From: Malacoraja senta
Lineage: Eukaryota
NCBI GenBank assembly: GCA_038087875.1
Contig: CM075989.1
Location: 17,672,001 to 17,736,000, forward strand
Direction: 5' to 3'
DNA length: 64,000 bases
This document shows, one piece after another, positions 21,690 through 57,879 of the stretch. Both the position numbers and the translations under genes were made by a program. The notes below the pieces were generated by a model. That model was not told where the DNA came from. It did no database searches and saw nothing but the letters and a program-made list of their open reading frames with translations. Each line of letters begins with the position of its first letter. Positions within the stretch are counted from its first letter, which is position 1.

Positions 21690-22345
21690 TCGCATTGATT
21701 CTCCTGCCACCCCCCCCATCCATCCTATACTGGTCCCCCAATTCATCCTGTACTGACCCCCCTTCCCATCCATCCTGCACTTCTCCCCCCATTCATACTG
21801 CACTGATCCTCCCATTCATCCCATACTGACCCACCCTCCATTTACCCTGCACCAATCCCCCCATCCATCCTGTAGTGATCTCCCCATTCATCTTTTACTG
21901 ATGCCCCATTCATCCTGTACTGATCCCCTCATGCATGCTGTACTGATCCCCTCATGCATCCTGTACTGATCCCCTCATTCATCCCGTACTGATCCCCCAT
22001 TCATCCTATACTGATCCCCTCATTCATCCTGTAGTGATCCCCCATTCATCCTGCACAGACCCTCCGATCCACACTGTCCTGACCCCCCCCCCATTCATCC
22101 TGTACTGATTCCCCCCATTCATCCTGTGCTGATCCCCCCCATCCATCCTGTACTGATCCCCCCCATTCAAGAAGAATGTCAACAGTCTGAAGAAGGGTCT
22201 CGACCCGAAACGTTGCCTATTTCCTTCGCTCCATAGTTGCTGCCTCACACGCTGAATTTCTCCAGCATTTTTGTCTGCCCCCATTCATCCTGTACTGACC
22301 CCCTCCCATCCATCCCGTACTGATCCCCCCATTCAACATCACTGA
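21690..22345. repeat. C-rich minisatellite, ~21-23 bp unit CCCCATTCATCCTGTACTGAT
   Basis: Visible tandem array, interrupted by a Penelope-derived unit at ~22170-22278. Confidence 0.9.
22187..22214 (+). ncRNA. Minimal type-I hammerhead ribozyme-like motif in a Penelope-derived unit
   Basis: CUGAAGA-A-GGGU-CUCG-ACCC-GAAAC-GUU. Stem I is weak. Confidence 0.55.
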
Positions 22346-23235
22346 CATCCCCCGTACTCTCCCCTCACAATTTTACATACTCCAACCAACACGTACTAAT
22401 TCACCTGCCTCAATCCATCCATTCCACACCGATTGCCTTCTCAACACCCCCCCCCCCCTCCATCTATCCACCCCGCACTGATTCACACACACCCTGACCC
22501 TATTGTGCTTCATGGTCTTCAGAGCGAACATTGACTATGTTTGATAACGGAATGCAATCAAATGTGTTTTAATTCCCAATGTTATTATTTGTTGTTGACA
22601 CCTTTAAACATATTACCAAAAGAACATTTGCTGCAGTTATGTCCTTTGGCCATCTCTTGTCAGTTAGTGTGATGTTTAACCTGTCAGATGGGTATAGGCG
22701 GTTTTAGAAACATAGAAAAAAGGTGCAGGAGTAGGCCATTCGGTCCTTCGAGCCTGCACCGCCATTCAATATGATCATGGCTGATCATCCAACTCAGTAT
22801 CCTGTACCTATTTTAACAGCTATTATCATAAAATGCCTTTCGAAATTTCCTTGCAACCTGTATATTTTGTTGTGGATAAATTATGCGGGAAGCGAGTGTT
22901 TCTGTGCCAATCGCAATAACGACCCCATGCTATGGCCATGTCACGGTAATTTTCGGTCCTTCACAGAAAACATGCTTGCATCAATCTGTAGTGTGCATGG
23001 TTAAGCATATATGTTACCATGGTCCAGTATTTATTGACACAGGTTGATCATATGCTGAATAATCCAACCACATTTTAGTTTTGGAAGTGGAAAGAACTAA
23101 TAGAAATTGCAATGTGTAAAAAGAGTTGAGATATTGTATTATAATTTTGTTGCATGTCATTGTGGTATATATCATGTCTTGATTGGTGAATATGTTTAGT
23201 TGGTGAGTTATTTGAAGCAGAAATAATATGTGAAT

Positions 23236-23453
23236 GTAGACAAAAGGGCTGGAGAAACTCAGTGGATGCGGCAGCATCTATGGAGCGAAGGAAATAGGCA
23301 ACATTTCGGGCCGAAACCCTTCTTCAGACTGATGCGTTTCGGCCTGAAACGTTGCCCATTTCCTTCGCTCCATAGATGCTGCTGCACCCGCTGAGTTTCT
23401 CCAGCACTTTTGTCTACCTTTGATTTTCCAGCATCTGCAGTTCCTTCTTGAAC
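23236..23453. mobile_element. Head-to-head inverted pair of Penelope-derived units
   Basis: Arms of ~85-90 bp form a long palindrome (23236-23418). Perfect 13-bp TSD ATAATATGTGAAT at 23223-23235 and 23454-23466. Confidence 0.85.
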
Positions 23454-23618
23454 ATAATATGTGAATACTTCATTGAGCATAATTCCGACTGGTAACTACG
23501 CACTTCGTCCGAGCACATTATCGCACGCGTCATGCAAACCGTCTGTCATTTGGTAACCTAAAAAGCTGTCAAGGTTGCCTGGCTGGCAACAGGGAAAAAA
23601 AGTTAAGTGAGAGCCCTG

Positions 23619-24800
23619 GTAGAGGTTTGTAAGATTCATTGGAGACATGTTGAATTTCCTCAATCTCCTAAGGAAATACATGTGTTAATATGCCGTCTTG
23701 GCTGTTGCTTCACTGTGGTTGGTCCAATACAGATCATTGGTAATATTAATACCAAGAAACTTGAAGGTCTCAGCGATTTTCTTCGTCTGCACCAAGTACT
23801 CAAGAAGTCTAGTTCAAGTTCAAGTTCACATTTATTGTCACAGGCACCAATTGGTGCAGTGAAATTTGAGTTACCATACAGCCATACAAATAAAAAAGAA
23901 CACAATACACAATAGAGTTTAACATAAACATCCACCATGGTGGAATCAACATTTCTCACTGTGACGGAAGGCAATAAAGTTCAGTCATCTTCCTCTTTGT
24001 TCACCCGTGGTCGGGGCCTTTGAACCCTCCGCAGTCGCCGCAACGGACGGCCCGATGTACAGGCCCTCTCGTCGGGATGATCGAAACTCCAGCGTCGGAA
24101 CGGATCGGAACACATTCTGCGGCTTGGAGTTTCCGTACTGGCCGCTTCTTACCGGAGACCGCGGCTTCCGAGACCACAGGCCCTGCTGGACGGAGCTCCA
24201 ACACTGCGATCTTCGGCAAGGGATCGCCCCGCTCCGCAATGTTAAAGTCAGCGCCGCGCCCGCAGCTAGAAGCTCCGCAGACCACAGCTCCATGGTGCTA
24301 AAGTCAGCAGGCCCAACACTGGCGATCCCCGGTAAAGGGATCGCCCAGCTCCGCGATGGTAATTCCACGCTGTGCCTGCTGCTGAAGCTCTGGGCTGGTC
24401 TCCGGTAGGAAAGGCCACGTCAATCCAGTTGATAGGCTTCGGGGGGGGGGGGGGTGGGTGGAGGCGAAGATGCGACACAGAGAAAAGACGCATATCCGTC
24501 CAAGTAAGTGACTGAGAAACCGTTTCCCCCTATTGCCCCATCCCCCACCGAAGACATACTAAGAAATATTAAAACATACATTTAGACACACTAAAAATAA
24601 CAAAAAGGGTGAAAGGACTAATGAGCTGCTGGCGAGGCAGCCACTGCGGTGGCGCCACCCTATGGATGGAAAACCCAAAGTCTATAACAAGCTCATTCAT
24701 CTTGCTGACATTGAGGGAGAGGTTGACACCATGACACCATGTTACCAAGTTCTCTATCTTCTTCCTGTACTCCGTCTTGTCATTGTTCATCATCCGGCCC
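23619..24800 (-). mobile_element. Rex1-type RT fragment split by a nested insertion
   Basis: NNDKTEYRKKIENLVTWC..LSLNVSKMNELVIDF (24800-24680) continues as ..ETFKFLGINITNDL.W..YFLRRLRKFNM (23800-23620). Confidence 0.8.
23812..24677 (-). mobile_element. ~870-bp GC-rich non-coding retroelement with Rex1-like tail
   Basis: 7-bp TSD AAGTCTA at 23805-23811 and 24678-24684. Minus-strand 3' end ..ttcactgcacc..tgtgacAATAAAtgt(GAACTT)n. Confidence 0.75.
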
Positions 24801-26186
24801 TTAAAGACTGGCTGAGTAGAGTTCAGGATCGGCATATTCCAGTAAGGAGGAAAGACAAGGACGGCAAGGGAACCTTGGATGACGAAAGTGTAAATTTGGT
24901 CAAATATAAAAAGAATAAAAAGCAACAGAAGATAGAGTGGTAAATAAGGAGTACGGTATGCTTGCCTTCATCAGCCAGTGCCTTGAGTCAGGAAGTTATG
25001 TTGCAGCATTATAAAACTTTGCCTATGCCACATTTGAAGTATAGTGTACAGTTATCCAACAATTACACCAGAGAATCTGCCCCCATTAAAACTGGAACAA
25101 AATCAGCAAGTCAATTTATTTAAATGGAAAAGAAAGATTAACGAGAAGGGTTTTAGTTGATTGACACTTTGCATTTATAGTTTCTTAACAAATCATGTAT
25201 TTAAATTTAGTTTTATATTTAGAGTTTTAATATCTTAAAGTATTCATTCTTTCATATGTTTTAATATTTTAACTTGTTTTTCAGATCATACAAAGTCCTT
25301 GATATTTGAATGCCAGCAAAACCTGGGTGTAATTTAGCCGAGTTAATTTTATCGTCCAATTCTTAGCTGGAATATAACCTGGGCCACCCACATGCTCACC
25401 TCGTGTTGCTGTGCTGGGCATCACGAGGGCGAGCAGGGAACAACTTTGGACAGAAGGTTGACAGAAGATCCAGAAACTATAAATTTGTACTTAATCTACA
25501 GAGCAGCAAGTCTGAGAACCCATCAAAAAAGTAGGCAGTGAATCATTTGTAGCAAAGCCCAGAATCAATTTTTTTTGCTTTGGAACAGCAATACCTATTA
25601 AGTTACAAACCTTGAACAAGTGGGCTGACTGTTCAAATGTCACGATAATTCCTCAAGCCTAATATACCAGCAGTTAACCAAAATAGCATTGCACATTTCT
25701 GAATGATAAGATCACATAACATTTCTGACTGCTGTTTCATACTGTCTCAATGATGTGATCTTACATTTTCAACTGTGTGAGTATGTCGAACGCAACAATA
25801 AAACACTATTACCAGCCAACAGGGTAGGAATATAACTCATCCTGATTTTCCTCAATGTAATTGATCACCGCTTGGTTATTTACCAACAAACAAGGGTGAC
25901 TTTCCTACTACCCATGGATGTGCACTGCAGTATTGTCACCAAGTTGGCCCCACAGCAGAAGCGTCCACGTCGCGGGGCTGGAAACTGAAAGTATCCTGAG
26001 CTAATTCTGCTACCACCATCATCTATTGCAACAAGTGATGGCTCCCACTGACTGTCGCCAGAAGCTTGCATCCTTTTCAGGACGGACGATGACAGCGATG
26101 TCAACATTTGAAACATGGAAAATGGTCACTAAATTCATTATGCGTGTTGTCCAAATGTTATACAGAGCACACAATTTTAATGTTTA

Positions 26187-26784
26187 CTAGACCAAGTGGG
26201 ACCCGTTGGGTCCCTGTCACACGGGAGGCCTGATCCCCCAACGCAACCAGTTCCCCCAACGCAATATTCGACCACTCACCCATAGCCCCCACTGGAGGCC
26301 TGGTCCCCCAGCGCAACCCGTTCCCCAAGGCAATATTCCACCACTCACCCGTTGCCCCAACGCAATATTCCACTACTCACCCATAGCCCCCAATTGTGCA
26401 AGGAGCTACTCATTTCCCCTTATTGACCCTCCCTCATTTTAAACTTTAAAAAAACGATTGTACTTGCAAGGGCTGGCAGGACTCAGTGTCCTGGGATTGC
26501 AACATTGTAGTGGGCAGGGCTACAATGCTACTGTGACATCATAGCTGTAACTGCCAGTGCCGTGGGAAGAAATTTTTCTCACATTGGGACTTTGTAAAGT
26601 TAAAAATGTGAATAACATGTAAAATATAACATCAATCTGAACGAAATGATACACCACAGGAAAATAGTGAGTAAGGTGGTCCAAAAATTGTAGCGCTATC
26701 GTGCACCGTTTTGGCGTAGTTCAGCACAAACAAACACACAAACTCACTCACAGACAAGATGAGAGTTTTTGTAAAATATATAGA
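26187..26784 (-). mobile_element. Non-autonomous Helitron
   Basis: Minus strand A|TC...GGGACCC-AAC-GGGTCCC-acttggt-CTAG|T: TC start, 3' hairpin, CTRR end, AT target and no TSD. Confidence 0.85.
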
Positions 26785-27359
26785 TACAGTACCATTTACA
26801 ATCTTCTGACACATTCAAAAGTGTTTTACAATTAGTGTCATTTAAGAAAATGTGGCATAGCAAATAAAATAACGTGAAAATTATCTGTGATGTTGATTAA
26901 TATGTAAATATTGGACAAGGCATGAGTTTAACCCTTCACTTCAAAATAGTACAATATAATCTTTCAAACCTAAATGACAGTAATAGGTTCTACATCGTGA
27001 AACAAAAATGTATTAAAATGGTCTTTGTTAAAATCTGACAATGTGCACTTTAACCACATGTGATTCTTTTCTATTACAAATCTCAAATTGTGGAGTACAG
27101 AGGTAAATAAATAAATGATGGGTCTTTGTCCCAAACATTATGGAGGGCAATACAAGGCCTTATTTGCAGCAAGTAATGTATCATTGGTAACCTGGGATGA
27201 ACTACATGACTCAGCATTAAAGACAAATACACCACAAGCAAGAACTATTGTCTAAGAATTATATTTGTAATCTGTACAAATTATCTTATTATCTATTTAT
27301 AGACATACTGGTCATAATGTATAGATAATTAAAATCTGAAGCAGAAAATGTAGCAACTC

Positions 27360-33900: not shown

Positions 33901-35285
33901 TGCCGACACATCTAAATTTCCAAACAAAATAACCGTTAGAAAATACCTGCTCCAGTCTGGGGAGCAAAGTGAATCCAAGTCACAAAGCATGCTTGTTTAC
34001 CCTCCTGGAGGCCCACAAGACCTCCTCAACCCAACCAAGCAGCAGCAAAACAAAAAATAGAATGGGGATTTAGACGATTGACATTTTTTCCTCCTTACAA
34101 GGATCTTTGCTATTACGGAGTTCACCGCTTTGTGAGGATTTTGTTGCTTAAGTGGAAACGTGAACAAGAATGGACCAGCTTATTAATTCCATTCTTGTTA
34201 TAAATCAGTGTGTGGAATGATTCCGTGTTATGAATTTGTGTTATGTGGCCCTCTGCCGATAAACAAAACAAATAACTCTCCGACCCCCAACCCTCAGGCC
34301 ACTTAAGAATTTACGTTGTTACACAGCAAGTGGATTTGAATGAAGGACATATTTTGACAGGCTAGCTTCAACTTTTTTTCAACTGGTGCCATTACATTAA
34401 TTTTAGTCATACAATTGAGATTAAAGCTTACCCTTTGGCAGTAATGCTAATGCAAACTCCCAAACTCGACAACATAATCTTTTTCAACAATATAATCTTG
34501 TTAAGGTAAAGTAGATCAAGCAACTGATTTCCTGCTAAGTATTTTCCCACGTTTCCCTTTATTTTATTTGTATTACGCAATTTTCTTCCATCATCATCCA
34601 ACGATCCCTCCTAACACTACATTATTTGCTCAGCTTTCATTATCTCAATCTAATCACCGCAAGCATTCAGGCTTGCTACAACAGTTTTTTCACTCATTTG
34701 CAGCATTAACCTTTTGATATCTCGCTTTCGCTCACACCCAATCTCCCTGCAGCTCCTTTCACTTGATCCAGTCCACGTTATCATCACCCTGTTCCAGCCC
34801 CAACTAATCCCCCCAACCCATACCTGCTATGATCCTGTATGCACTCCCATTGTAGCTGATCCACACTGCAGCACACCTCAATCTGCCCAGATCCAATACC
34901 CCCTCATGACACACTGCCCTATGCGCTGCCAACCCCATCTCAAGCTCATGGATCTCACAAACCTCTCTCATGCAGCACAGGATTTTTCTCCCTCCCTACC
35001 CTCTTTTTAAATTCCAGCCAACTCTCCCGAACCAACACAGAAACGACCCCTCCTTCAATCTCTCATCCCATTATTGCAAAGTTTCATCCTCTTCTGCCAC
35101 TCATGGTACTCGCTCCCAATGTTGACCACAATCAAAGTGCCACCTGTGGGGTGGGAGCTTGCAGTGCGCAAACGGCATGCCGTTTTTTCCCGACATTGCA
35201 ACTACTTCATCGTTGAGGGACGTGAAAGGCGCTGTTTAAATGACGGGCTTTCGCCAGGATCCAGTTGCGTGATTAAATGTGTATG

Positions 35286-35411
35286 AGGGAACTGCAGATG
35301 CTGGTTTAAACCGAAGATAGACACAAAAAGCTGGAGTAACTCAGCGGGTCAGGCAGCATCTCTGGAGAGAAGGAATGGGCGACGTTTCGGGTCGAGACCC
35401 TTCTTCAGACT
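35286..35411 (-). mobile_element. Penelope-derived short unit with an intact hammerhead-like core (35381-35408)
   Basis: Minus strand: agtCTGAAGAAGGGTCTCGACCCGAAACGTCgcccattcc..gctgagttactccagc..ccagcatctgcagttccc. Confidence 0.8.
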
Positions 35412-35905
35412 CACGCATGATTACATGTTGCATTAGTTGCACTGTGTGAGGCCAGGTGGGACTGGAGTTCCCCCCACCCCCCCGGGGGCCGCTCCAACCC
35501 TCCCCAACCCACACAACCTCCACCTGCCTCCCTCAGCAACCAAAACACCAGCGCTTGGGTGGCGGCCCTCGCGGGTGGTCTGTCCGGGACCCTCACCCCA
35601 CACAACCTCAGGCAACCGGGTCCGGGGAGGGGAGGGGAGAGGGGCCTGGGGCAGCGTGGGGAGAGGAGAGTCCGGGCTGGGGTGGGGTGGGGAGGGTCTG
35701 GGTGATGATGGGGAGCTGGGGAGAGGAGACTGTCCTGGGGCAGTGAGGGGAGGGGAGAGTCCGGGCCGGGTGGAGCGGACGGGGAGCTGTCCGAGGAAGA
35801 GGGGGCTGTGAGGAGGGGGAGGGTGGTTTGAGGAGGGGGGTGTGAGAGGAGGGGGGTGTGAGGAGAGGGCACCGACCGACCTCCCTCCCCGTCCCCCCCG
35901 CTCAC

Positions 35906-35975
35906 CTGGGGCCGCCAGCAGCAGGGCGAGGGTGCCGGCGAGCAGGCAGTGCCAGCACAGCTGTCCGAGCGCCAT
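35906..35975 (-). CDS. IGDCC4: IGDCC4 coding exon 1 (signal peptide MALGQLCWHCLLAGTLALLLAAP + 1 nt)
   Basis: ATG at 35975 inside a CpG island. Hydrophobic signal-peptide-like 23 codons, then donor G|GTGAG at 35905. Phase 1 joins exon 2 in frame (G+AC = Asp). Confidence 0.85.
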
Positions 35976-35979
35976 GTAC

Positions 35980-36212: not shown

Positions 36213-37215
36213 TGCTGGACTGTGTTGAGCTCTACTGGACTTTGCTGAGATGGGTTGTGCTGGGCTCTGCTGGACTCAGCTCAGATGGGTTGTGCTGGGC
36301 TCTGCTGGACTCAGCTCAGATGGGTTGTGCTGGGCTCTGCTGGACTCAGCTCAGATGGGTTGTGCTGGGCTCTGCTGGACTCAGCTCAGATGGGTTGTGC
36401 TGGGCTCTGCTGGACTCAGCTCAGATTGGTTGTGCTGGGCTCTGCTGGACTTTGCTGGACTCAGCTCACATGGGTTGTGCTGGGCTCTGCTGGACTCAGC
36501 TCAGATTGGTTGTGCTGGGCTCTGCTGAACTTTGCTGGACTCAGCTCAGATGGGTTGTGCTGGGCTCTGCTGGACTCAGCTCAGATGGGTTCTGCTGGAC
36601 TCAGCTCAGATGGGTTGTGCTGGGCTCTGCTGGACTCAGCTCAGATTGGTTGTGCTGGGCTCTGCTGGACTCAGCTCAGATGGGTTGTGCTGGGCTCTGC
36701 TGGACTCAGCTCAGATGGGTTGTGCTGGGCTCTGCTGGACTCAGCTCAGATGGGTTCTGCTGGACTCAGCTCAGATGGGTTGTGCTGGGCTCTGCTGGAC
36801 TCAGCTCAGATTGGTTGTGCTGGGCTCTGCTGGACTCAGCTCAGATGGGTTGTGCTGGGCTCTGCTGGACTCAGCTCAGATGGGTTCTGCTGGACTCAGC
36901 TCAGATGGGTTGTGCTGGACTCAGCGCAGCTGAGTTGTGCTGGACTGTGCTCGGCTAGGCTGAGCTCAGCTGGGTTGTGCTGGACTCAGCTCAGCTGGGT
37001 TGTGCTGTGCTGGCGTGGGCTCTGCTGGGACATCCTGGGCCGATCTGAGCACTGCTTGGCCGGGCTCTGTTGGAACAGGTGGAGCTCTGCTGGGTTGTGT
37101 TATGATCTACTGGACTGTGCTTGGCCAGCCTCTGTTGGAACAGGCTGAGCTCTGCTGGGTTGTGTAGTGACCTACTGGGCTCTGCTGGAACAGGCCAAGC
37201 TCTGCTTGGTTGTAC
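36213..37215. repeat. 35-bp minisatellite built from pentamers (TGGGT TGTGC TGGGC TCTGC TGGAC TCAGC TCAGA)
   Basis: About 19 near-identical units at 36251-36920, with 25- and 45-nt variants, decaying toward ~37215. Confidence 0.95.
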
Positions 37216-38195: not shown

Positions 38196-38654
38196 CCAAG
38201 CCCTTTTGCATCTGCAAGAGACTGATCCTTCTTATTCCATTTCCAACCAATCTTGTTTCGCATTATCATTAATTTTATCCTATAATTTCTCTTGCCTTCC
38301 GTCCTTTCTTTTCGCTCCTCGCTTAAACCATTTATTTTAAAACACTGTTCCCATTCTGATAAAGGCTATTAAATTGGAATATTAATTATTTCTCTCCATA
38401 GATGATGCCTGACCTGCTAAGCAATTCCAATATTTTCTATTTCCATTTCAGATTATCAACATTCATATGCGTTAGTTTGGTTTTGCACTTGCTTTATTGA
38501 CCTCCACACCTGCCAGGAATTTCAGCATCTATTTGTGTTAATTTACAATTTGACCCGAGTAGAGTAATCATACAAAATTGCCGTACCTAATCAATTATTC
38601 AATGTCTACTCAATGTCTCCATTAAAAAAACATTATAGATTTTAACATTATAGA

Positions 38655-39839: not shown

Positions 39840-40048
39840 GGGTGGGTTTTCTCCAAGATCTTCGGTTTCCTCCCACTCCAAAGATGTACAGGTTTGTAGG
39901 TTGGTAAATGTAAAAATGGTAGGTTGGCAAATGTAAAAATTGTCCCGAGTGGGTGTAGGATAGTGTTAGTGTGCAGGGATTGCTGGTCGGCGCAGACCTG
40001 GTGGGCTGAAGGGCCTGTTTCCGGGCTGTATGTCTAAAACTAAAACTA
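39840..40048 (+). mobile_element. 5'-truncated V-SINE
   Basis: cggtttcctccca..gtacaggtttgtagg..gggcctgtttcc..(CTAAAA)n. Confidence 0.75.
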
Positions 40049-41059
40049 GGTGCAGGATATAAAAACTAACTTAAAGAATATTGTGCTTATGTTAAATACG
40101 GAACTCAAATGATTCCTGGCGCTTATCATACCACAAATTGATAGTTATATGTAATCATATCACAGCATATACTTTTCACATACACACACATCTAAATATA
40201 CTCTGTTAGAACTCTATTCATGTGCTTCTTTGGGTTCAGTGACCCCCATCAGGTATGCTAGAGTGTCGTCATTAATGCTTTACCTGTATATGCGAGTGTG
40301 ATCACACAAACGAAGACTGACAGCAACATAAAGTATTAAGAAAGGCATGACATTTCTGTTGAAGGTTCATTGACCTAAAACATAAGCTCTTTTTCTCTCC
40401 ATATAAATGCTGGCTGGTTTGTCGAGTATTCTCCACCATTCCATTTCATGTTACATCAAAAGAACCTGGGTTGCTGTTGCATAAATCATTGTTTGAATCT
40501 CATTTGGATTTCAATTGCAATTCTAATCACCGTAGTCTTAACTTTAACTCTGGTGGGATTTGGTCAGGAGTCACAGAGTCATACAGCACAGAAACATGCC
40601 CTTCAGCCCTACTTGACCATGCCGACCAGGATACCCTATCTAGGCTACTCCTGACCCAGCTGTCTGAAGAAAGATCCTGACTCGAAACATTGTCTGTTCA
40701 TTCCCTCCACCGATGCTGCCTGTCCTGCTGAGTTCCTCCAGGACTATTTTAGACATTAGGCAAATTCTGCTTAAAATAGGCAAAAGAAAGTGTTCAGATA
40801 TCTGTTCTCAGCGGAATGTGGGGTTGGGTCACAGTGAATATTTGCTTCGGAGGAATGGAAGAAGTCACAGGTTGGATTTGGAAGCAGTGTGGTGCCAAAA
40901 CAAAACAAAAATACTACCTGCTGGGGCCTCGTCTATTTTCTATCAAATCCTGACTGGATTTGCCTAGTAAGAAAAACATGATGGTTGTCTGTAATTAAAG
41001 AAGGATACTGTTAGCATTGATAGAGCAACTCAAAGAAGAGGCCAGGAGGCTGTTAAGAG

Positions 41060-41735: not shown

Positions 41736-43129
41736 TTGCAATAACGTAGCAAAACGTTGGCAGGTTGGTAAATTTGAATTACTTTTTAAAACATAGAAGA
41801 CTATTAAATGTTAATAATCGCTCTAATGATGGGATAGTTGCTGCCCGGTAGACCAGGAGACTAGGAGTTGCTTGCTGAGCTTAGAGCCAGAGGCGTTGTG
41901 TCTGCAGGAAGGAACTGCAGATGCTCGTTTACAGTAAATATATGCAAAATGCTGGAGTAACTCAAGGCAGCATCTCTGGATAACAGGAATAGGTAACGTT
42001 TTGGGTTGAGACCCTTCTTCAGACAAAGTCAGTTCACTCAAGAAGCATTCTATTTAAAGAAACAAATAATAGCAACTTCACCCAGTAAAATAACATTTTT
42101 TTTCAGAATATTGCTGATGATTATGTATACATTCAGTGTGTAAAATCAGTCTTCTTAACCTAAAAGCAGTATAACCACCAAGTTCGATTCAATTGGGAAT
42201 TCTGGCTGCTCTGTGTTGTTGCTGTAGGTGGTCCTTATTCGGAGAAGGCACGGGGAGTGTGGTGGGGGTAAAAACACTACTGACCTCCTTCCCCCATAGA
42301 CTCCAACTCATTGCTTGAGGAGGTGACAACAATGAATGACATTTTTGCTTGACCTACGCATTATTCTAAGCCGTCAAGATTGGACCTGAACAGTCTACGA
42401 TGGATCAATAGTATAATCTGTTGGCATGTTGCATCCATAATTTAACCACTCAGCTTTTTCACTTTGGTTGTGAAATTCAATGTTGATGTGACCCAGGCAA
42501 TTTTTCAATTTTAACCGCTCATCCCTGCGACTTATGGAGAGCAAGTTTGATTTAAATTGTCCTGCCAACCTTTAAAATATTATACATTTCTTTGAAATAC
42601 TAAATCAGCACTGAGCAGGCATGCTCCTACATTTTACATCTGAATAATGAAGAAAGGTTTATGAAATATGGGTCTTTGTAAAGAGCATATTCTGTTATAT
42701 AAAGTATTCTGACTATAAAGTATTCTGAAAATATTCTGAATATAAAGTTTTCTGATTGAAATTGCTGGTTTATAAGGATTCAAAAGTCATATGCATCCAA
42801 TAGGAATCAGATCAGATGGATGTCCAATCACGCCATGTCTCATGCAGTCGTGACTTTGTCCGCAATATTTCTTTAGTCAGCCAAAGTACCATTTAGGATC
42901 CCATGAGGCAATATATTAACACACACCGCATAAAATCAATATTCTATTCCATCTCCCAGTCCGCAATAAACCTTACAGGATTCATTTCACATATGATAAA
43001 ATGCAAAGAGGTATTTGTTGGCCTAGAGTAGGTTTTTGGGATTGCATTGATTTTTGACATTGGATACTACTTGCTCTGACGGCTTATTTTTCATATCCCG
43101 ATTAAGCCATTAAGGTTTTTTTTAGGATC

Positions 43130-43305
43130 AGTGTGGAAACAGGCACTTTGGCTCACCGAGTCCACGCCGACCAGCGATCCCCGCACATTAACACTATCCT
43201 ACACACACTGGGGACAATTTACACTTACACCAAGCCAATTAACCTACAAACCTGTTCGTCTTTGGAATGTGGGAGGAAACCAAAGAACTCGGAGAAAACC
43301 CACGA
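43130..43305 (-). mobile_element. V-SINE 3' half
   Basis: Matches 10640-10810. Confidence 0.75.
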
Positions 43306-43439
43306 TTGTTAACTTGGATTTTATTGGACATTAATTGTGAAGGGAATGGTGATTTTTGTTGTCCTCTCACCCACTTCAACCACTTCCCTCATCCAATCTC
43401 AGTTCTTGTCCTTGGAATTTGCACCTGACATATTGTTGA

Positions 43440-44530
43440 GCTCTTCTACCTCTGGTCCTCCTCCATTGCCAGAATGAGGCCACACGCAAATAGGAGAAAC
43501 AGCACCTTGGGTAGCTTACAACCCAATGGTATATACATCTGAAGAAGGGTCTCGACCTGAAACGTTACCCATTCCTTCTCTCCAGATATGCTACCTGTCC
43601 CGCTGAGTAACTCCAGCTTTTTGTGTCAATCTTAGGTATATGCATTGAATTCTCCAATCTTCGGTAACCAACCTACAATTCCAACTCCTGACCCCCCCCC
43701 CCCCCCCTGTTTTTCCCCTCTCTTCCCTGTGCCCTACCTGGACGTACATCCCATTTCTCCCCTTCCCCTTGTATCCCTACCTCTGGTTTCACATTTCATG
43801 GCTCTTCTATCCTTATCTCACACCTTGTCCTTTCATCTTTGGCCTTTGTCCAACCATCAGCCAGTCAAAACCCCTCTTCACATATATCCACCTATCATCT
43901 GCAGAAGATGCAACACCTGTCCCTATACCTCCTCCCTCGATACTGTTCAGGTACCCCGACAGTCCTTTCAGATTAGGCAGAGGTTCACTTGCACCTCTCC
44001 CAACCTCATCTACTGTATCCTTTGTTCAAGATGTGGACTCCTATACATCGGCGAGGCCAAACGCAGACTGGGCGATCGTTTCGCGGAACACCTTCGCTCA
44101 ACCCGCCTGAACCTATCTGATCTCCTGCTTGCTGGACACTTTAATTCTCCTTCCCATTCCTACACAGACCTTTCTGTCCTAGGTCTCCATAATCAGAGTG
44201 AGGCTAAACACAAATTGGAGGAACAGCATCTCATATTTCACTTGGGCAGCTTACAGCCCAGTGGGATGAATATTGATTTCTCTAACTTCAAGTAACCCCA
44301 GCATTCCCTCTCTCTCTCTCTCTATCCCTCCCCCACCCATGGCCCACTAGCATCTCGTTTTCACCCTACAAACAGCTAAATGGCCTGTTTCTTTTATCAT
44401 CGTTACTTTTTTGTATATCTTTCATTCTTCTTTACTTCTCCACATCACTGTCTATATCTCTCATTTCCCTTATCCCTAACCAGTCTGAAGGAGGGTCTCA
44501 ACCCGAAACGTCTGCAGTTCCCTCTTACAC
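43440..44530 (+). mobile_element. Penelope-like element: tandem 3' repeats with an open GIY-YIG endonuclease coding region (~43899-44295)
   Basis: CRRCNTC..FTCTSPNLIYCILCSRCGLLYIGEAKRRLGDRFAEH..HF..H..EEQHLIFHLGSLQPSGMN. An older partial copy lies upstream, and a hammerhead-like motif sits at 44485-44512 in the 3' UTR. Confidence 0.9.
43539..43634 (+). mobile_element. Hammerhead-motif short unit nested in an older Penelope copy
   Basis: CTGAAGAAGGGTCTCGACCTGAAACGTT.., with an 11-bp near-perfect TSD GGTATAT(A/G)CAT at 43528-43538 and 43635-43645. Confidence 0.8.
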
Positions 44531-46099
44531 ATCTGTGAGACTTTGCCCCCACTCCCACCTCTCAAACAACTTTCTGCCCCACCCCTTCACTACAATCAAT
44601 CTGACCCAAAACTTCACCTATCCATGTTCTCCAGAGATGCTGTGCTGTCTGTACCCGCTGAGTTACTCCAGCACTTTGTCATCTTGTTATTATATTAAAC
44701 TTCTATATGCTCTCAGCTCACCGAAACTCATCCTCTCTTGCAATCCTACCTTCACTATTCCAAATATAACCACTCGTACATCTCATCCCATCATCCCAAA
44801 GAGTCCAATGAATAAATTCACCCCAACAAGACCACCCATACATCTCCGCCACATAAATATACCTGTCATACACGAAGATAATGTGTTGAAGAGTGGACAT
44901 TAACCCAAGTCAATCCTCACATGCTAAATAAACTCATTCATGTTAACTACAAACATACCCACTTTTCAATCCCCAAGTGCCAGCCCAGATTCCCACTCAA
45001 TCCTCAAATCCTCCTACACTTAACTTTGTCCATGCGTATCTGTCGCCGTCCTTTCCCCAACACATCCAATGCTGAAAGCGACTCAATGCTTCAAGGTAAA
45101 CATTAGTTTCTTATACTAATGTATAAATTAATGTTTTTGTAATGAAAAATTCCCATTCCCTTTTATGTTGTCAGTTTTACACCGAGAGGGAAAGAAGGAG
45201 CCATTGAGTGTCACCAACAATGCTGCCCTTTTGTTGGGGCCTGCACTGTGCAAACCCTTCTCACCCCCACTTCAGTATGCAGCCTTGTATTAACAAAACA
45301 AGCATCTTGCAATTGGTCTCACTTCAAACATCTTCAAAGACAATCCCAAACGTTGAGCATTTTGTTCCCCCTTTTGCCACGTAAATGGAATTCATAGTGT
45401 GCATCGGTATTAGGCCAGCAGGAACTCGGAATGTCAGCCTGCATTTTTTAAATTTAACCCACAGACATCGAGTTTATTGTTAAGATAACTTCTGTTAGTC
45501 TTGTAATCCAAATGTAAACCTGACCAACATTGCTTGCATAACCAGGCATTGGCTTTCAATGTTATTGGTGCAGAGAGATGCTGGGAAATCAGGGGCCACA
45601 TATCTGAAGTCATTGTATAAGGATTAGAGGGGGGGGGGGGGGGGTTGTGAAAAAAACATTCATCCAGTGGTTCATAGACTCTGCCTGAAAACGTGTCTGT
45701 AGGAAAAACAGCATTGCATTTAAAGTATATTTGGCTATGCAGTTAAAGAGTCTTGGTCTGTGGAGATACTGATGACTGCTCAAAGGTGCCATTAGGTCAC
45801 GTAGCACTTTTTTAACTATCACAGACATGATGGGCTAAATGGCCTTCTCCTGTGACATAAATATGTCTTCTGGGAGAAGTCTCAGGATTAGAGGAAAACA
45901 GCACTATGTAAAGATTGCAGCAGCAGGAGAAGTCAAAATAGACGAGCCGGAGAGATCTCTGCTTGACTCAAAGTGTATATATACATGATAACTCCAACAA
46001 TGATATTCACCCAACAGGGAATACAGTGCTCCTGGAAAAAAGTCTGTCAATAACTTATAAAAAATATCTATCATAGAAGACTATCCCATAGATGACTAT

Positions 46100-46265
46100 C
46101 CTAACATTTAAGAAGCCGTTAAACAGGGTACATGGATAGGACAGGCTTGGAGGGATATGGACCAAGCACAGGCAGGTGGGACTAGTGTAGCTGGGACATG
46201 TTGGCCAGTGTGGGCAAGTCGGGCCGAAGGGCCTGTTTCCACACTGTATCACTCTATGACTCTAA
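46100..46265 (+). mobile_element. CR1 3' end fragment
   Basis: TFKKPLNRVH..gggccgaagggcctgtttcc..(ACTCTATG)n tail. A minus-strand homolog lies at 59135-59405. Confidence 0.75.
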
Positions 46266-47807
46266 GCCAAGAGTCTTTGACAGTGCATTTGGACTTTACC
46301 CCTTTGATAAACTGTTAAAAATTATTTGAACCAATTTTAATAACACTCTGAAGATATAACACAGTTTGTGTAAACATTTCTCAGTATTAATTTTGATACA
46401 AGGGACTGCAGATGCTGATTTACAATAAGAATAAGTGCTGGAGTGACTCAGCAGGTCAGGCAGCATCCCTGGAGAACATGGATAGGTGACTTTTCAGATT
46501 GAGACCCTTCTTCATAATAATGTACTTCGCCAAAATATGGTGACTCGTGCATGTGCGAGCTGTGCAGAAAGAATTTCACTCAGCAGTGCTTAATTGACAA
46601 GAGCCATTGATATTAAATCTTTTAAAAGTAGTAATTGTATCTGCTTCTATCATTTCCTTTGACATCTGTTTCAGGTATGGACGACCTCAGACTGTTGGCA
46701 ACATTATACAGTAGACTGTGACACTGACTGCCCCAGTTCACAGGATGTGCAGTGTTCCACTCGTGACAAGACATTGCTGAAGAAACCAAAATTCCAACCA
46801 AGAGTACGAGTCCCAGAGAAAAACACCTTGATATCCACAGTGTCACTTAGACTCTGGAGAAGGGGCAATCCAATTCAGAAATGCAGTTAGCAGGCACAAT
46901 TGTGAGTTTTCCCAATGTTATCATTCGGTGCCTGAGCTGCCACAGCAGTAGATGATTCCAACACCGTAGTGGTATTCACAGCCAAATTGAATGAGATGGA
47001 GGTATAAACCTTTAGTACTGGGGTTATCAATATGGAAAGATTCTGATGCACCTCGCTGATTATGGCATCCGATTGGAAGAGCTTGATTTTGGTTTGAAAA
47101 TCATAAAGAGGTTTACATTGTCAAAATTACATTTAAATAAACTCTCCCTACGAAGTTGTGCATTGCATATTTGTTAGGGCGAGCAATGTGCACAAAACTG
47201 TGCTGATCCAAATGGATGCTAATCATTTCTGGATAATTAGTTCCATTTTGATATTACAGAGCACACTAGTGAGAATGGCCTGTAGATTGTGCAGCACAGT
47301 GTGGGCAGGGCTCCTGGGCAAAACATCTTTCTTCAATATCCCGGTTTTTATTTGTGCATTCTGCACTTATGGACTGACACAAGCCAGAAAGTATACTCCA
47401 TAGCTTGCAACTAATCTCTGATTTCAACTGCAAATTGTGAAAATTCACTTCATGCGCATTTGAGGCTTTATAAATAAAAAGTAGAGGGCACAATAGACTT
47501 AAGATGATGCCTATTGCTTGTACTATGTGAGATGTTTGCTGCCTCACGGCTGGAGTAAGCCCAACATGGCGAGAGCGTGGGTTTTCTGATTGTCCAAACT
47601 ATTAATTGCCGAGTGATTTCAGGAAGAGAGAGACACAAAATGTTGGAGTAACTCAGTGGGTCAGGCAGCATCTCTGGAGAAAAGGGATAGGTGACGTTTT
47701 CTAGGGCAGTTCTGTTTATGGATTTTGGGGAGAGGGTAAAACCAGGCCATGCAGGGCTGGGGTACGATAAGGTTGGGGGCTGTGGAGGGCAGATAGCCAG
47801 TCAGTCA

Positions 47808-48891: not shown

Positions 48892-49210
48892 CGGCACTGT
48901 GGCATAGTTGGTAGTGCTGCTGCTTCACAGCGCCAGAGAACGGGTTCAATCCTGACCTCGGGTGCTGTCTGTGTGGAGTTTGTCCGTTCTCCCTGTGACC
49001 ACATGGGCTTCCTCCAGGTGCTCCGGTTTCCTCAAACATCCCAAGGACATACGGGTTTGTAGATTAATTGCCCGCCGTAAATTGCCCCAAGTGTGCAGGG
49101 GGTGGATGCAAAAGTGGGGTAACATAAAACTAGTGATCGATGGTCTGTGTGGACTCCATGGGCCAAAGGGCCTGATTCCACACTGTATCTCTAAACTAAC
49201 TAAACTAAAC
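48892..49210 (+). mobile_element. Full-length tRNA-derived V-SINE
   Basis: Box A TGGCATAGTTGG, box B GGTTCAATCC, V-domain and (CTAAA)n tail. Confidence 0.85.
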
Positions 49211-50797: not shown

Positions 50798-51062
50798 AGT
50801 TCAGAGATATTGCATGGAAACAGGCCCTTTGACCCACCAAGTCCATGCCAACCAGTGACACCAACACCATCCTACACCTGAGGGACAATTTACAATTTTT
50901 ACCAAAATCAATTGACCTACAAATCTGTACATCTGTAGGAGGAACTCAGAGCACCCGAAGAAAACCCACACGGTCACAGGGAGAATGTACAAGCTCCATA
51001 CGGGCAGCACCCATAGACAGGATCGAACCAGGGTCTCTGGCGCTATGCCACTGTGCCGCCCA
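50798..51062 (-). mobile_element. V-SINE
   Basis: Box B GGTTCGATCC, V-domain and CR1-like tail. Confidence 0.8.
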
Positions 51063-51522: not shown

Positions 51523-51859
51523 ATTCAGATAAAACTATTTAAGATAGAACTAATAATAACAAATGCAAATGACAAAGGTTCCTCCACCGACATGCTCTGT
51601 CCCCATGATGCTGTCCCCTGATGATCAGGATCCCCAATGAGATTCTGAAAATGCACATCCTTGTCCGTATCTCAGCAACCTGTGTAGACTAGTGATGATG
51701 CAGTTCACCACAATCCCCAGTGCACCAGAACATCCTTTGGTGATTTAAGAACATTCGAAGACTTAAACCTCAAATCCCTCACTCAGCTCAGTCCCCTGAG
51801 AAGCAACAGTTCTGCCTGCCTCTGCAGAAACTAGCAAACAGAAAGATTGGAATCTAGGC

Positions 51860-52332: not shown

Positions 52333-52719
52333 AGTACTATGTGTGTGTGTGAGACATGGAACTACAATGGGCAGCTCCAAGCCATAGAGGTTCAGTTGGT
52401 GCTGCCTCTGCAAAAAAAAAACAGCCCACTGGCAGGACCATTAAACCAATTCCAGCTCCAGTGGATAGGCTGTATCATCCACATGCCAGGGACCTGATTG
52501 CCAACACAATTTCCTTCACAGCAAAATATTTCCAGCACGAAATGTGAACACTTCAAAGATATTCAAGACGGTCTCCTTGAAAAAATATGACGGTTCAAAG
52601 GTTTAATGTCATTTATTATCACATTTACCAAAGGTACAAGAAAATGCATATCTTGCATATAGATCACTGCGATTATTGTCATACATCCTCACCAACTCAT
52701 GGCAATTCCTGCCCCGTAA

Positions 52720-53160
52720 CACAAGGGTGGTAAAGAAGACACAATATACTTTATCAGTTGGGGCGTTGAGTATAAAAGTTGGGAAATCACATTGCAGCTT
52801 TATAAAACCTTGGTCAGGCCACATTTGGAGTATTGTGATCAGTTCCGAGAGCCCGATTACAGGAAGGATGTGGAGGTTTTTGGAGAGGGTGCACTAGAGG
52901 CTCACCAGAAAGCTACCTGGATTAGCGAGTATTGGCAATTAGGAGAGGTTAGCCAATTTGGATAGTTTTTTTCTGGAGATTCAGAGGCGGACGACCTGAT
53001 GAAAGTGCAGAAAATTATGTGATCAAGAATTATGTTAAGAGGCATTTTGATAGGAATGTAAATATGGAGGGATGTGGAGGCAAGTGGGATTAGTTTAATT
53101 TAGCATCATGTTCAGCACAGACATTATGGGCAGAAGGGCATGTTCCTCTGTTCCAGGTTC
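52720..53160 (+). mobile_element. Degenerate CR1 3' fragment
   Basis: LQLYKTLVRPHLEYC..YRKDVEVLERVH*R. Confidence 0.75.
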
Positions 53161-54237
53161 CATTGACGTTAGATTGGAACAATCGCACACACTGATTTCT
53201 ATTTTTTGTCCATCACCACTTTTTACAAAGGAGAAGGTCAACTCCACATCAAGGAAAGGTTGAAGACTTGCTATTAGAGACATAGAGTCAAAGCCATATA
53301 GCACAGAAACAGGCCCTTTGGCCGAACTTGTCCATTCTGACCAAGATGCTCATCTATACTAGTTCTACCTATCTTCATTTTATCGAGTTTACGAGAATTA
53401 TGATTGAGCTTCCAACACCTAGGAAGCAACATAATAAAGCAGAGGAATCTATGCAGCAACTGGACAAAGACAACCTGATAACCCCTCTCTGTAGAGAAGG
53501 AAGCTGGGTACAGGTCCGGCATTATTTAAACTAAATATTTATTACCAAAGACCAAATAAATGGTCTCACGAGGCAAATTAATTCCAGCCCATATCTCAGC
53601 AGTACATTCTGCAGTGGGCTGTGGTCTAAGTCCTGCAATGTGTGAGTTTAATTCAGTCCATTTGATTATTATCTCACATAATAACAGCTACTAGAAGCAA
53701 AGATTAAAGAGTGTTAGCCTACTTAGCGAAACCCTTTTTCGTGCGTCCCAATGATTATTGTAAAACATATTATCATCCGATCAGCTAAAGCAGCAGCAGC
53801 AGAGTATTAAATCCAAAGGGATGAGAATGGTCAAGATCAACTTGGTTATATATATTTATCTGACCAAAGAGCCACAAGCTGGAGATTATCCAAGAAAAAA
53901 ACATCACTCTAAAGCAACTTCACATCTTAGAATAGGTCCCAATACAGTAAATGAGCATTACAGTTTAATAGGGAAATAGTGAGGTCAGTTAGCGCACACT
54001 GCAAGATGCCAGATTCAGTAGCCACTGGATATTTAAGGAACTATTACCATGATATCTTTGGAGCCATCTGAAACAGCAAGTCAGATTCCCACTGAACTCA
54101 CTCAAGGACAGTTTGTGTTTTGCTCAGGTGGAAAGCAAGCCGCTTTTAATTTGCAGAGAAGCGGGGAAACATAGATAAGGGTTCTCCCATAGAGCTGGGG
54201 GATGGGGGGGGGGGGGGGGCTGTTACCGTGATAAACT

Positions 54238-54512
54238 ATTTAGACTTTAGAGATACAGCGAGGAAGCAGACCCTTCGGCCCTCCGTGTTGTCCAACAATC
54301 AAACCGTAGACTAGTTCTATCCGACACGCTAGAGACAATTTACCGAAGCCTACGAACCTGCATGTTTCTGGAGTACAGGAGTCTTTGGAGCATCCGGAGA
54401 AAACCCAAGTGGTCACAGGGAGAACATGCAAACTGCACACAGACAGTACCCGTAGTCAGGATTGAACCCGAGTCCCTACTGCGGTAATGCAGCTACTCTA
54501 CCACTGTGCCGC
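54238..54512 (-). mobile_element. V-SINE
   Basis: Box B GGTTCAATCC, V-domain and tail. Confidence 0.8.
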
Positions 54513-54789
54513 ACCTAGTGATGAAGCTCTCTGGTTGATAGATTGTGGTCAGTTATAGATACAGAAAACAAATAAAATGATATGTAAAAAGTGTGAAATG
54601 CAGGTCAGGGCTGCGGGAAACGCACAGCAGATCAAGTAGTATCGGTGGAGAAAGGATGATAGGAATATTAGAGGGTTATAACTTACAGAACTATTCAGTT
54701 GAGAAGCACAGAAAACAACCTGAAATTGTTTGAACTAAATAATCTTGAGCCTGGAATCTATCCAAGCAGGGAAAATAGGTACAGAGGAC

Positions 54790-55110
54790 AATCAGAACCT
54801 TTTCCTCCCCAGGGTGGAAATGTCCAATACAAGAGGGCATTGGCATAAGGTGAGAGCGGTAAGTTGAATGGAGACGTGCGGGGCAAGTCTTTTTTTTTTT
54901 AACATAGTGTAGTGGGTTATCTTAGTTTAGAGATTGCCAGGGGTGGTGGTGGAGGCAGATACGATAGTGGCGTTTAACAGGCTTCTGGATAGGCACATGG
55001 AAGTACAAGGAATAGTGGGATATGGATCATGTACAGACAGACGTGATCAGTTTAAGTTGGGATCATGTTCGACAAACATTGTGGGCTGATTGTGCTGTAC
55101 TGTTTGTTCT
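54790..55110 (+). mobile_element. CR1 3' end fragment
   Basis: TRGHWHKVR..LPGVVVEADTIVAFNRLLDRHM. Confidence 0.7.
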
Positions 55111-57294
55111 ACGTTCAATGAAATGCCGTTCTTCAAGCTGACATCGGCCTGCAGGAAACCACAGACAGTGCGAGTGTGGGACGAAGGAATAAAGTGACGA
55201 ACAACAACCAGAGGCTCAGGGTCACCCGCAGACTGAATGTGGGCACAAAGTGGTCCTATTGTAGAAGAGCTCGCATTGTGCGCATTGAATGCATTGCAAT
55301 AAATTGGAAAAAGCTCACTGCATTTCATTCAGTGTTCATCATCCAGACCTCATCTGCCGATTTGTTCACACTGTTTCTTTCCCCAGAGATGCTGCCCAAC
55401 CCGCTGCGCATTTCCAGCATTTTCTGGTTTTGCACGTGAAATGGATGACTTTCATTTAACCCTCAACCTATCAGGATATGTGAATGTATAATCCACTAAC
55501 ATTTAAGAAGAGTGCAGTGGTGGGAGTTTTAGCATTAGATAACTAACAATGTGTATACAAATTATTTTCAGCCTACAAAGTGTTGCTTCTATATTTTCTG
55601 TTGAACTGCATTCATGTCTTCACACTCCGAGATTCTTCCTTGACATTTTAAATTACAAATTTACTATTAGAGCCACCTCATGACTCTATCAGACTGCTCT
55701 GCAATTCTATATGATTATGGCTCACATAACCTTGGCCTTAAAACCACTTTCCTGATCATGACCTGATCCTAGATTTCTAAAAATAGTCCAGAAATCTATA
55801 CCTATCCTTGGATGTACTGTAATTAATGACCAATTATCTCAGGGGACAAAATTCAAATGACACTCTCATCCTCACAATAATTCTCCTATAGAGTCCCATT
55901 TAAATCTGTTATGCTTCAGAAAAAATAACCAGAAGATATTGGTAGGAAATGTAAATTTCCTGGTCAGGAATCAAATATGAAAAGGCGATTGAAACATTGT
56001 CTTCAAATAGTGCAAGTTTAAATATTTTGCATTGATTTCTGCAGACGCTACAGCATTAGAAAGGATTGTTCAACAAAACTAGTTTGTAACGCTGTCCATA
56101 TTCTACTCGTCTTTCCCCAATGCTCCTTGCTGTCTCCCATCTAGCATCACCTTCCATTCCTCTATCACACCCTTATGACATGGGAGACGACCATTTGGCC
56201 CGTCATGTCTCTCAGAGCAATCCCGACAATCCGATGACCCTACTTGGTTCTCCATAAGCTATTATCTCACACATGCCCATTGTCACACATCACGGCCCCT
56301 TTCACTGACCACCCACTCAGACCGAGGGCAAGTTGCGGTAACTAGTTAATGTACAGTAACAGTCAGTAGGTCTTTGGGATGTAGGAGGAAACTAACACCC
56401 ATGGAGAATATGGCAACTCCACACAGGCAAAATCAGAGGTTAAATTCAAAACCAACTCACTTGGGTTACCAAACAGTTGCACCATCTGCCTTGTTTCTCT
56501 GCTGTCCTATTCAGCTCCCTTCAAAAACATCTCAAACTTTCATCACAATTATTCCTTGCGGGGGGCATTTCCACAGTGTAGCAACTTCTTGGGTAAAGGC
56601 GTTTATCCTGAATTCACTAACAAATTAATTGGAAACTAATCTCCACCGTTGTAATCTCCAAAAAAAAAAACACTTTCCCATTGCCTGTTAACTTTAGACA
56701 TTTTTTTCTTCCACAATTGGTTGCCGTATCAAATCTGTGTACACTCCTTTTAATTGATTTTAGATTGAAAAATAAAAATACTAAAGTCTAGAAAAATAAA
56801 AATACTAAAGACAATTCGATGCGAGCATTCCTCTAGAAGTAACACGGGCAGACTTGAGTTATTTACCATTTCAATTCCCCGACACTATTCTGGGTATCTC
56901 AGAGTGACCGCTGAAGATCAAAGTGCACATTTTCCTTCATCCAGTAATTTTGTTGAATGGTAGATAATTTAATCATGTTCACCATTATAATTTTTCACTG
57001 AAATTAGTCAACCCATTAGTCAACTCCAGAGATGCTGCCTGTCCCACTGAGTTACTCAAGCATTTTGTGTCTATCTTCTTTATAAATTAAAAACAAATTT
57101 TAACTGTGTTTGCAAATTCATCAAAATTAACAATAAGTGCAACATAGAACACCCATTTCAGATGCCCTGCCCCCAGTAATTACCTTACTCAATTATTTTT
57201 TTACACAGGAGGTAATCACATTTGAAAGCATTAATATTCTCATTTTTCCATCAATGCTCTTTAACCAACATAGTAAAATCACTTTCATCTATTG

Positions 57295-57615
57295 ATCAGA
57301 AGGTTGAGTTCAATGTTCTGGGGCAGGGCTGAGGCTGTGCTACACTGTTAGAGGTGTTGTCCCTCAACTGGGATATTAACCCAAGGTCTGGCTTGATCTT
57401 TTGCGGATGTTACAAATAGCTGGCATATCTTATGTCAGATATTTATCCCTCAATCAAAATTTAAAAAAAGATCATTATCACATTGCCCTTGCAGGAATTG
57501 CTTTGTGCAAATTGACTATCTTATTTCCTATATTACAATAGCGACTGCACTTTAAGAGAGTTACTAGCTATAAAAGAGCTTTGGTCCACGAGAGGGACTG
57601 TTTGTATGCCAGTCC
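57295..57615 (+). mobile_element. Old Deu-SINE-like (SacSINE/AmnSINE-related) element
   Basis: ..atatttatccctcaa..attatcacattgc..gtgcaaattg..tttcctatattacaatagcgactgcactt.. recognised from memory of the family. Weaker copies at ~180-300 (minus) and ~4200-4360. Confidence 0.5.
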
Positions 57616-57785
57616 TTATGTACACCAACCTCAGAACAATATCCCCCAGAATAAACAAATATTTTTTGTCCCATAATGTGAACATTCCCCATCAGTTTAT
57701 TATTTACTACCCTACCTTAACTTCAATTTGCCAAGTTCTCTTGCTTTAGTCAATGAAAGGAAGCTCATCCTGGTGATTGAGTGTA

Positions 57786-57879
57786 GACAAAAGTGCTGGA
57801 GAAACTCAGCGGGTGCAGCAGCATCTATGGAGTGAAGGAAATAGGCAACGTTTCGTGCCAAAACCCTTCTTCAGACTGA
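57786..57879 (-). mobile_element. Short Penelope-derived hammerhead-motif unit
   Basis: 94-bp insert with a perfect 10-bp TSD ATTGAGTGTA at 57776-57785 and 57880-57889. Confidence 0.85.

Follow-up and report, generated by a model that had tools for sequence, protein, structure and literature searches.

A 64-kb stretch of the Malacoraja senta genome (GenBank assembly GCA_038087875.1, contig CM075989.1, positions 17,672,001 to 17,736,000 of the forward strand; hereafter the window) contains 21 pieces of a dispersed repeat family with a hammerhead ribozyme motif. The family is the tail end of a known jumping gene, a Penelope-like element (PLE), together with its known, mostly broken self-cutting motif. 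Only one feature is unexplained: half of the copies have their 5′ end in the same stretch of six bases. We consider it probable that the units are the 3′ ends of a Neptune-type PLE (a clade placed by endonuclease and linker only), whose reverse transcriptase (RT) initiates within uncleaved PLE RNA and as a rule halts at −1 to −6, leaving discrete stubs of ~95 or ~135 bp. Unit positions are given relative to the hammerhead core position C3. We infer this mechanism from observed features: a link to a GIY-YIG endonuclease frame, target-site duplications (TSDs), two classes of 3′ ends, an inverted pair and clustered 5′ ends.

The original prediction, made from the letters of the stretch, had placed the motif at 11 sites. 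All 11 were among the 12 matches found at up to seven mismatches, at 12909(−), 14185(−), 17289(−), 22187(+), 23301(−), 35382(−), 40664(+), 41996(−), 43539(+), 44485(+), 46489(−) and 57848(−), compared with a shuffled mean of 0.02. With up to three mismatches, the window held six matches and 100 shuffles none. A profile of the 3′ part, built without the hammerhead, recovered 19 members in the window at E<0.01, and one 6-bit match in five shuffled windows. Together with the pieces at 12935 and 44485, both lacking the 3′ part, the family came to 21 pieces in 64 kb, consistent with the high copy number that had been proposed. A unit size of ~100 bp had been proposed; there are two length classes, of ~90–95 and ~130–135 bp. 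The skate genome measures 2–2.5 Gb, and extrapolation from the density in the window, which may be atypical, would give some hundred thousand genome copies. A single prokaryotic match to the motif was rejected as chance, being without flanking similarity, and a motif scan of viral contigs and metagenomes found nothing. The literature search yielded no paper that describes the skate units or reports PLE hammerheads with a fixed 5′ edge; Repbase, Dfam, figures and preprint supplements were outside that search and may hold the unit. The link between hammerheads and Penelope has been known since 2014, and the skate family adds a lineage to it, not a mechanism.

The Penelope origin was supported by two GIY-YIG frames that lead into a unit, after 189 and about 300 nt. 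One belongs to a 5′-truncated Neptune-type insertion at 43897..44535 (+), with the GIY-YIG frame at 43897–44295, a pyrimidine-rich 3′ untranslated region or pseudo-long terminal repeat (pLTR) at 44296–44484, the core at 44485–44512 and a tail to ~44535. Its core follows the TAA at 44293–44295 by 189 nt, where ~190 nt had been predicted. In this copy A9 is changed, ~80 nt are deleted right after the cleavage site, and the tail is a remnant. The other frame belongs to an older PLE 3′ end at 43461..44690 (+), split by two later insertions: its GIY-YIG C-terminus lies at 43461–43665, its pLTR at 43666–43896 and 44536–44600, and its unit, with stem II partly deleted, at 44601–44690. It holds two nested insertions: the solo unit at 43538 and, in the pLTR with CATCTG at both junctions, the insertion at 43897–44535. 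Two younger PLE insertions inside an older PLE end, one in the endonuclease frame and one in the pLTR, suggest self-targeting. In content, a unit comprises the last pLTR bases, the minimal hammerhead and the next 60–105 nt.

The frame at 43897–44295 was 63–69% identical to proteins of the batoids Leucoraja, Mobula and Hypanus, and matched the Pfam GIY-YIG domain at E=0.0013, which is below the curated cut-off. Alignment with its relatives placed a Cys linker ahead of the nuclease and showed the CCHH residues and columns of invariant Cys and His; the full CX2-5CxxC linker was seen in the 63–69% identical batoid relatives. More distant relatives carry an RT, and none was present in the window. 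Such a linker marks Neptune and Nematis among the elements with a C-terminal endonuclease (EN) (PMC8557442), and Neptune and Poseidon are the only PLEs that a preprint by Li et al. reports from vertebrates (bioRxiv 10.64898/2026.07.22.740005). The skate elements resemble the Neptune EN+ PLEs described by Craig et al. (2021, PMC8557442) in the C-terminal GIY-YIG, Cys linker and CCHH residues, and in 5′ truncation, an inverted adjacent copy, an optional 30–40 bp tail and insertion into older PLEs. They differ in that the window copies have no RT, so that their placement rests on endonuclease and linker. A further GIY-YIG C-terminus, also decayed, lies at 7371–7500 (−) together with the first part of a pLTR, with no hammerhead unit nearby.

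Insertion by the PLE RT and EN, as originally proposed, was supported by 10–13 bp TSDs, the optional tail and a head-to-head inverted pair. All four TSDs reported before were real, at 14128/14216 (12 bp, one mismatch), 23223/23454 (13 bp, exact), 43528/43635 (11 bp, one mismatch) and 57776/57880 (10 bp, exact), and a fifth was found at 35270/35418. A random site gives a match of at least 10 bp this close to both ends 1.9% of the time. The five TSDs were 58–85% AT, compared with 58% for the window. The TSD at 23223 had been assigned to a solo unit; instead, its copies (23223–23235 and 23454–23466) enclose an inverted pair at 23236..23453, inserted as one. The minus copy (23333–23236) starts at −6 and has no tail, and the plus copy, from 23336, starts at +11 and has one. 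This is the classic type of inverted pair with a tail on one side (PMC8557442, PMC3846280). Across the family, 3′ ends lay near +89 to +96 or, with the tail, near +128 to +135; the ~40-bp tail was recognised by pattern in four copies, besides the remnant in the 44485 copy.

A similar arrangement is described for the Poseidon element PAc of Anolis, in which reverse transcription begins at two internal sites, the tail being the stretch between them (Frangieh et al. 2024, PMC11167929). According to the same study, the anole PLE prefers AT-rich targets and inserts uncleaved RNA, its hammerhead cuts only when the protein is present, and insertion in vitro does not require hammerhead cleavage. PAc and the skate family both have AT-rich targets, copies spanning an uncleaved hammerhead and, downstream of the hammerhead, a tail defined by two neighbouring 3′ ends. 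PAc belongs to another clade, and its open reading frame (ORF) starts in stem II, whereas no such start is evident in the skate. The running text of that study describes no preferred stop upstream of the hammerhead.

The original prediction had most of the TSD-bounded solo units starting within a few nucleotides of CUGA, and starts close to CUGA were supported. Eighteen of the 21 pieces were scorable, with positions partly set by eye and three old pieces excluded, and nine of the 18 began at −1 to −6. Four others ran on into the pLTR, and five began between +11 and +42. The cut site was spanned from upstream of C3 in 13 of the 18 copies, and at most one started near +29. The stop rate was about 0.10 per nt at −1 to −6, compared with 0.007 downstream (~15×; binomial P about 2e-6, with the zone chosen after the fact).

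Copies starting at this edge include the minus copy of the inverted pair and a series of solo units. The unit at 35281..35417 (−) has a tail and an intact core (C3 at 35408), and starts at −3 after a 6-nt filler between TSDs at 35270–35280 and 35418–35428. The unit at 43538..43634 (+), within the old GIY-YIG frame, starts at −1 and has no tail (TSD 43528–43538 / 43635–43645). At 22183..22276 (+), a unit with an intact core starts at −4 within a 23-bp tandem repeat, which makes its TSD unreliable. The unit at 14140..14215 (−) starts at −3 plus one extra G, with G12 changed and a 16-nt internal deletion (TSD 14128–14139 / 14216–14227), and that at 57786..57879 (−) starts at −5 with three of four stem II pairs (TSD 57776–57785 / 57880–57889). 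Two more units with tails are those at 41900..42024 (−), starting at −2 with G12 changed and no TSD found, and at 46386..46516 (−), starting at about −1 with C3 changed. An older solo unit at 40662..40748 (+) starts at −2 and keeps two of four stem II pairs.

The remaining pieces have other ends. The unit at 17232..17454 (−) runs on for ~140 nt upstream into pyrimidine-rich pLTR, and a damaged core (12935) at 12909..12975 (−) has upstream pLTR, with its 3′ part missing. Truncated units were found at 20871..20944 (−, start near +15, inside stem II), 47627..47699 (−, near +21), 57024..57086 (+, near +42) and 55370..55426 (+, near +29 to +35), the last being the only piece possibly beginning near the cleavage site. 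The pieces not scorable at the 5′ end were an old decayed inverted pair of an older subfamily at 3566..3745 and old decayed copies at 18845..18960 (−) and 38350..38460 (+).

The four run-on copies have a pyrimidine tract upstream (fraction 0.83–0.87, compared with 0.39–0.70 where no pLTR is recognised), which in three of them ends in CAG just before −1. The flanks of solo units share no sequence, with a mean identity of 0.26. A spliced-in exon 1 or a transduced leader upstream of the solos was ruled out, as their flanks share nothing, and a cap-derived G was rejected with one clean case in four TSD-bounded solos. The edge itself reads TCAGT, which we take to resemble the initiator consensus. 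In the Penelope element of Drosophila virilis, the start is at 371 and the intron at 416–491 (PMC2377424), and C3 of the hammerhead is at 496 (PMC4209133). The intron therefore ends 5 nt before C3, and the skate edge matches the position of the intron end.

Contigs of four runs were compared over 41800–47800, with contig counts favouring copies that have unique flanks. At 43538, loose-ended contigs numbered at least 1,013, at least 1,233 and at least 1,551 in three large DNA runs, from three organisms. Their consensus shares only ATCAG upstream, after which agreement is 0.34–0.35. At 47699–47700 the contig consensus continues to about −5 to −7 and then dissolves into AT-rich letters. In the unit bins, depth (which does not equal copy number) exceeded that of the GIY-YIG bin by a factor of 5 to 10 and that of unique bins by a factor of about 100,000. 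Contigs of organism B bridged the junctions near 46516 and 44685 with 3–5% differences, so those two insertions, including the solo unit ending at 46516, are old and shared. Among the 15 joints listed (9,462 more were present), there was no empty site or intron-skipping joint, which is evidence in neither direction.

The consensus of the units fits the published PLE hammerhead, CUGANGAH G..C GAAAN palindrome NU H, in which an additional base following position 9 is conserved (Cervera and de la Pena, PMC4209133), in agreement with the minimal type I hammerhead first proposed. The likeness covers the CUGANGA core, the extra base after 9, G10.1-C11.1, GAAA, the palindromic CG without loop 3, UH, the short helix I, the position after the GIY-YIG ORF and the mostly dispersed single copies. 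The extra A and the 2-bp stem I, both pointed out in the original prediction, are no oddities; they are published PLE hammerhead traits, with a 2-bp helix I listed for Drosophila, Culex and Oikopleura (PMC4209133). Skate helix I has 2 bp, GU with AC or GC (within the range of 2–5 bp), and helix II has 4 bp, so that both helices are among the shortest in that study. It counts about 4,000 motifs in coelacanth and 9,000 in Xenopus, mostly single, and the motif tested there showed no monomer cleavage and low dimer cleavage. The 56 motifs of its Fig. S3 include no cartilaginous fish, and its running text makes no mention of a fixed 5′ edge of single copies.

Wholly intact cores were found in two of the 12 copies (22187 and 35408). 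The variant GGGUUUCGGCCC, which had been put forward for a test of covariation, turned out to be a one-sided change from U-A to U-G, not covariation. Both-sided changes occurred in none of six stem pairs in alignment A2 and in one of six in alignment A3, the latter from two old copies and not above shuffles. Rfam hammerhead models gave no match at gathering level in the window, nor around the best copy with the threshold relaxed to E=10, an outcome to be expected of loopless variants. Units folded no better than shuffles (z −0.8 to +1.4). In the best predicted fold the core is hidden, its purines pairing with the pyrimidine tract after the cut site; for the best copy, the hammerhead fold costs 7.6 kcal/mol more, and the predicted probability of the outer stem II pair was <0.15 in 10 of 12 copies. 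The pairing of the core GAAGAAGGG with the pyrimidine tract (35364–35412(−) and other copies) recurs in subfamilies A and B. It is predicted to be an off-state fold, which a bound protein or a partner RNA would have to open.

A first count of core mismatches (1/99, compared with 78/542; P=2e-5) had indicated selection on the core. It was discarded as biased, since copies were chosen by motif, 12935 and 44485 were left out, and subfamilies were mixed. Counted against subfamily consensuses, selection was not supported (2/104 versus 52/807, P=0.08), and between subfamilies the core differed at 1/11 positions and the rest at 20/75 (P=0.28). Judged by these sequences, the motif is a predicted hammerhead, and most copies could not be ribozyme-active.

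In the mechanism that we favour, the PLE endonuclease would nick AT-rich DNA, and RT would begin on the PLE RNA at about +90 or +130, giving units without or with the tail. It would then copy through the hammerhead, which implies that the template was uncleaved or re-ligated. RT would usually halt at −1 to −6, where the pyrimidine tract ends in CAG, a putative site that reads both as a 3′ splice acceptor and as an initiator-like RNA start. The stop may be a protein roadblock on unspliced RNA or a run-off at the RNA 5′ end, and we lean slightly towards the roadblock at the acceptor. A minority of cDNAs would pass the edge and become ordinary longer truncated PLEs. In solo copies the hammerhead would be a decaying passenger; without a stem III loop it would need a partner RNA, and probably the PLE protein too. 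Only tentatively do we suggest the broader claim, which is doubtful at present, that the commonest PLE retrotransposition product in skates is a strong-stop-like stub, made when RT, after internal initiation, halts at a splice acceptor or RNA start directly next to the hammerhead.

Several points weigh against the stub mechanism. The splice acceptor or RNA start at the edge is a candidate read from the DNA sequence. Internal initiation is described for a Poseidon element (PMC11167929), not for Neptune. The contig counts are weighted towards copies with unique flanks and away from those that share the upstream pLTR, and subfamily divergence confounds the step in depth from unit to ORF. Five of the 18 copies stop downstream and four run on, so the stop is not absolute. 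Finally, each of the four pieces of subfamily B in the window is either solo or inverted, in keeping with the main rival, a self-propagating non-autonomous family similar to short interspersed elements (SINEs). Such a family would have an internal promoter from the initiator-like TCAGT and be copied in trans by the PLE RT and EN, its fixed 5′ end being its own transcription start. We regard this as unlikely but serious: it would account for the sharp 5′ edge and the units' own TSDs, for the depth of the unit bins relative to the GIY-YIG bins (5 to 10 times), for the lack of any ORF link of subfamily B in the window and for the G that two copies have at −4 instead of C, as a copied cap would give. 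Penelope also has an internal promoter (PMC2377424). However, the 3′ ends and the tail of the units are those of the PLE itself, and a clean single extra G was seen in only one of the four TSD-bounded solos. The D. virilis element has its start 125 nt upstream of C3; what adjoins its hammerhead is the end of the intron, not the start. The template of the anole PLE needed sequence past its sites of initiation, the first 172 nt of the ORF compared with starts at 111–118 (PMC11167929), and the solos lack such a sequence, if this is applicable to them.

Plain random 5′ truncation of PLE insertions, with the clustering an artefact of the motif search and of fast upstream divergence, is improbable in our view. 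In its favour, PLEs are heavily 5′-truncated (PMC8557442, PMC8969392), dispersed single motifs have been interpreted as truncated PLEs by Cervera and de la Pena (PMC4209133), and the sample is 18 copies. Yet members were found again by a profile without the hammerhead, TSDs fix the 5′ edge in four solos, the upstream pLTR is easily recognised by its pyrimidines when present, and the same edge occurs in contigs of three organisms. Least probable of all is a true non-LTR retrozyme, in which the hammerhead would cut tandem arrays into monomers that circularise and are then reverse transcribed by the PLE RT. Known non-LTR retrozymes are, like the skate units, non-coding, hammerhead-bearing, PLE-related, flanked by TSDs and present as dispersed monomers (PMC7229834; Li, Clavereau and Pollet 2026). 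They are reported to derive from PLE pLTRs and to occur in the one chondrichthyan sampled (bioRxiv 10.64898/2026.07.22.740005), and core positions of the skate motif are nearly invariant between subfamilies. In those retrozymes, however, a hammerhead lies in each of the tandem 150–450 bp units, which are processed to linear and circular monomers (PMC7229834; Li et al.), and the chondrichthyan consensus averages 363 bp (bioRxiv 10.64898/2026.07.22.740005). The skate units are 95–135 bp long, with minimal and not canonical helices, and their ends are unrelated to the cut: they are not permuted and start 29–34 nt upstream of it. The 19 members included no head-to-tail pair, with nearest same-strand neighbours >1 kb apart, and Tandem Repeats Finder reported no array of the unit in the 64 kb. 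The retrozyme-like character proposed in the original prediction is thus not upheld: the window has no tandem arrays, the cleavage site lies inside the units and not at their start, and each 3′ end is the ordinary PLE end with or without the tail.

The host gene in the window is IGDCC4, whose first coding exon (signal peptide) lies at 35906..35975 (−), with later exons near 6456–6770 and 2083–2220. The exon at 6456–6770 was 97% identical to IGDCC4 of Amblyraja radiata. Intron 1 contains nine family pieces. No orientation bias against sense copies was seen in IGDCC4, six of the nine intragenic members being sense. Among them, the unit at 35281..35417 lies about 490 nt into intron 1 with its core intact, which suggests that solo motifs are not cutting the host pre-mRNA efficiently. 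A GC-rich island without an identified exon occupies 20700–21600, in the middle of intron 1, and a minisatellite with a 35-bp period and about 20 copies (36221–37011) lies just upstream of the IGDCC4 start.

A CPEB3-like fold of the hepatitis delta virus (HDV) ribozyme type was found at 25946–26011 (+), scoring 36.4 bits with Rfam RF00622 (gathering score 35). It occurs once in the window and lies antisense within IGDCC4 intron 1, outside any CPEB3 gene. P1 has 6 bp, with G-U at the cut and both-sided changes relative to the Rfam consensus; P2 and P3 are present, as are a possible two-pair P1.1 and the catalytic-type C in J4/2, and P4 is weak. The literature search found no paper on a CPEB3-like ribozyme in skate or shark, and the fold may offer a clue to how the mammalian CPEB3 ribozyme arose. 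Other repeats in the window include one of about 580 bp, probably a young element, present twice at 94–98% identity (2990–3569, and 8067–8540 plus 9014–9121, split by a 470-bp insert). A second abundant dispersed SINE-like family of 200–300 bp, unrelated to the hammerhead units, has copies at 10620–10930, 39840–40040, 43120–43305, 48900–49210, 50800–51050, 54240–54510 and 62410–62690.

The fixed 5′ edge is the useful part of the finding, because a repeat this abundant, sharply bounded at either end, makes intron retention and the role of the hammerhead testable. If the stub mechanism is true, hundreds of thousands of copies would record, as a fossil footprint, the place at which the PLE RT encounters the splicing machinery or reaches the 5′ end of the RNA. 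Such a footprint would bear on why PLEs keep introns and form pseudo-LTRs.

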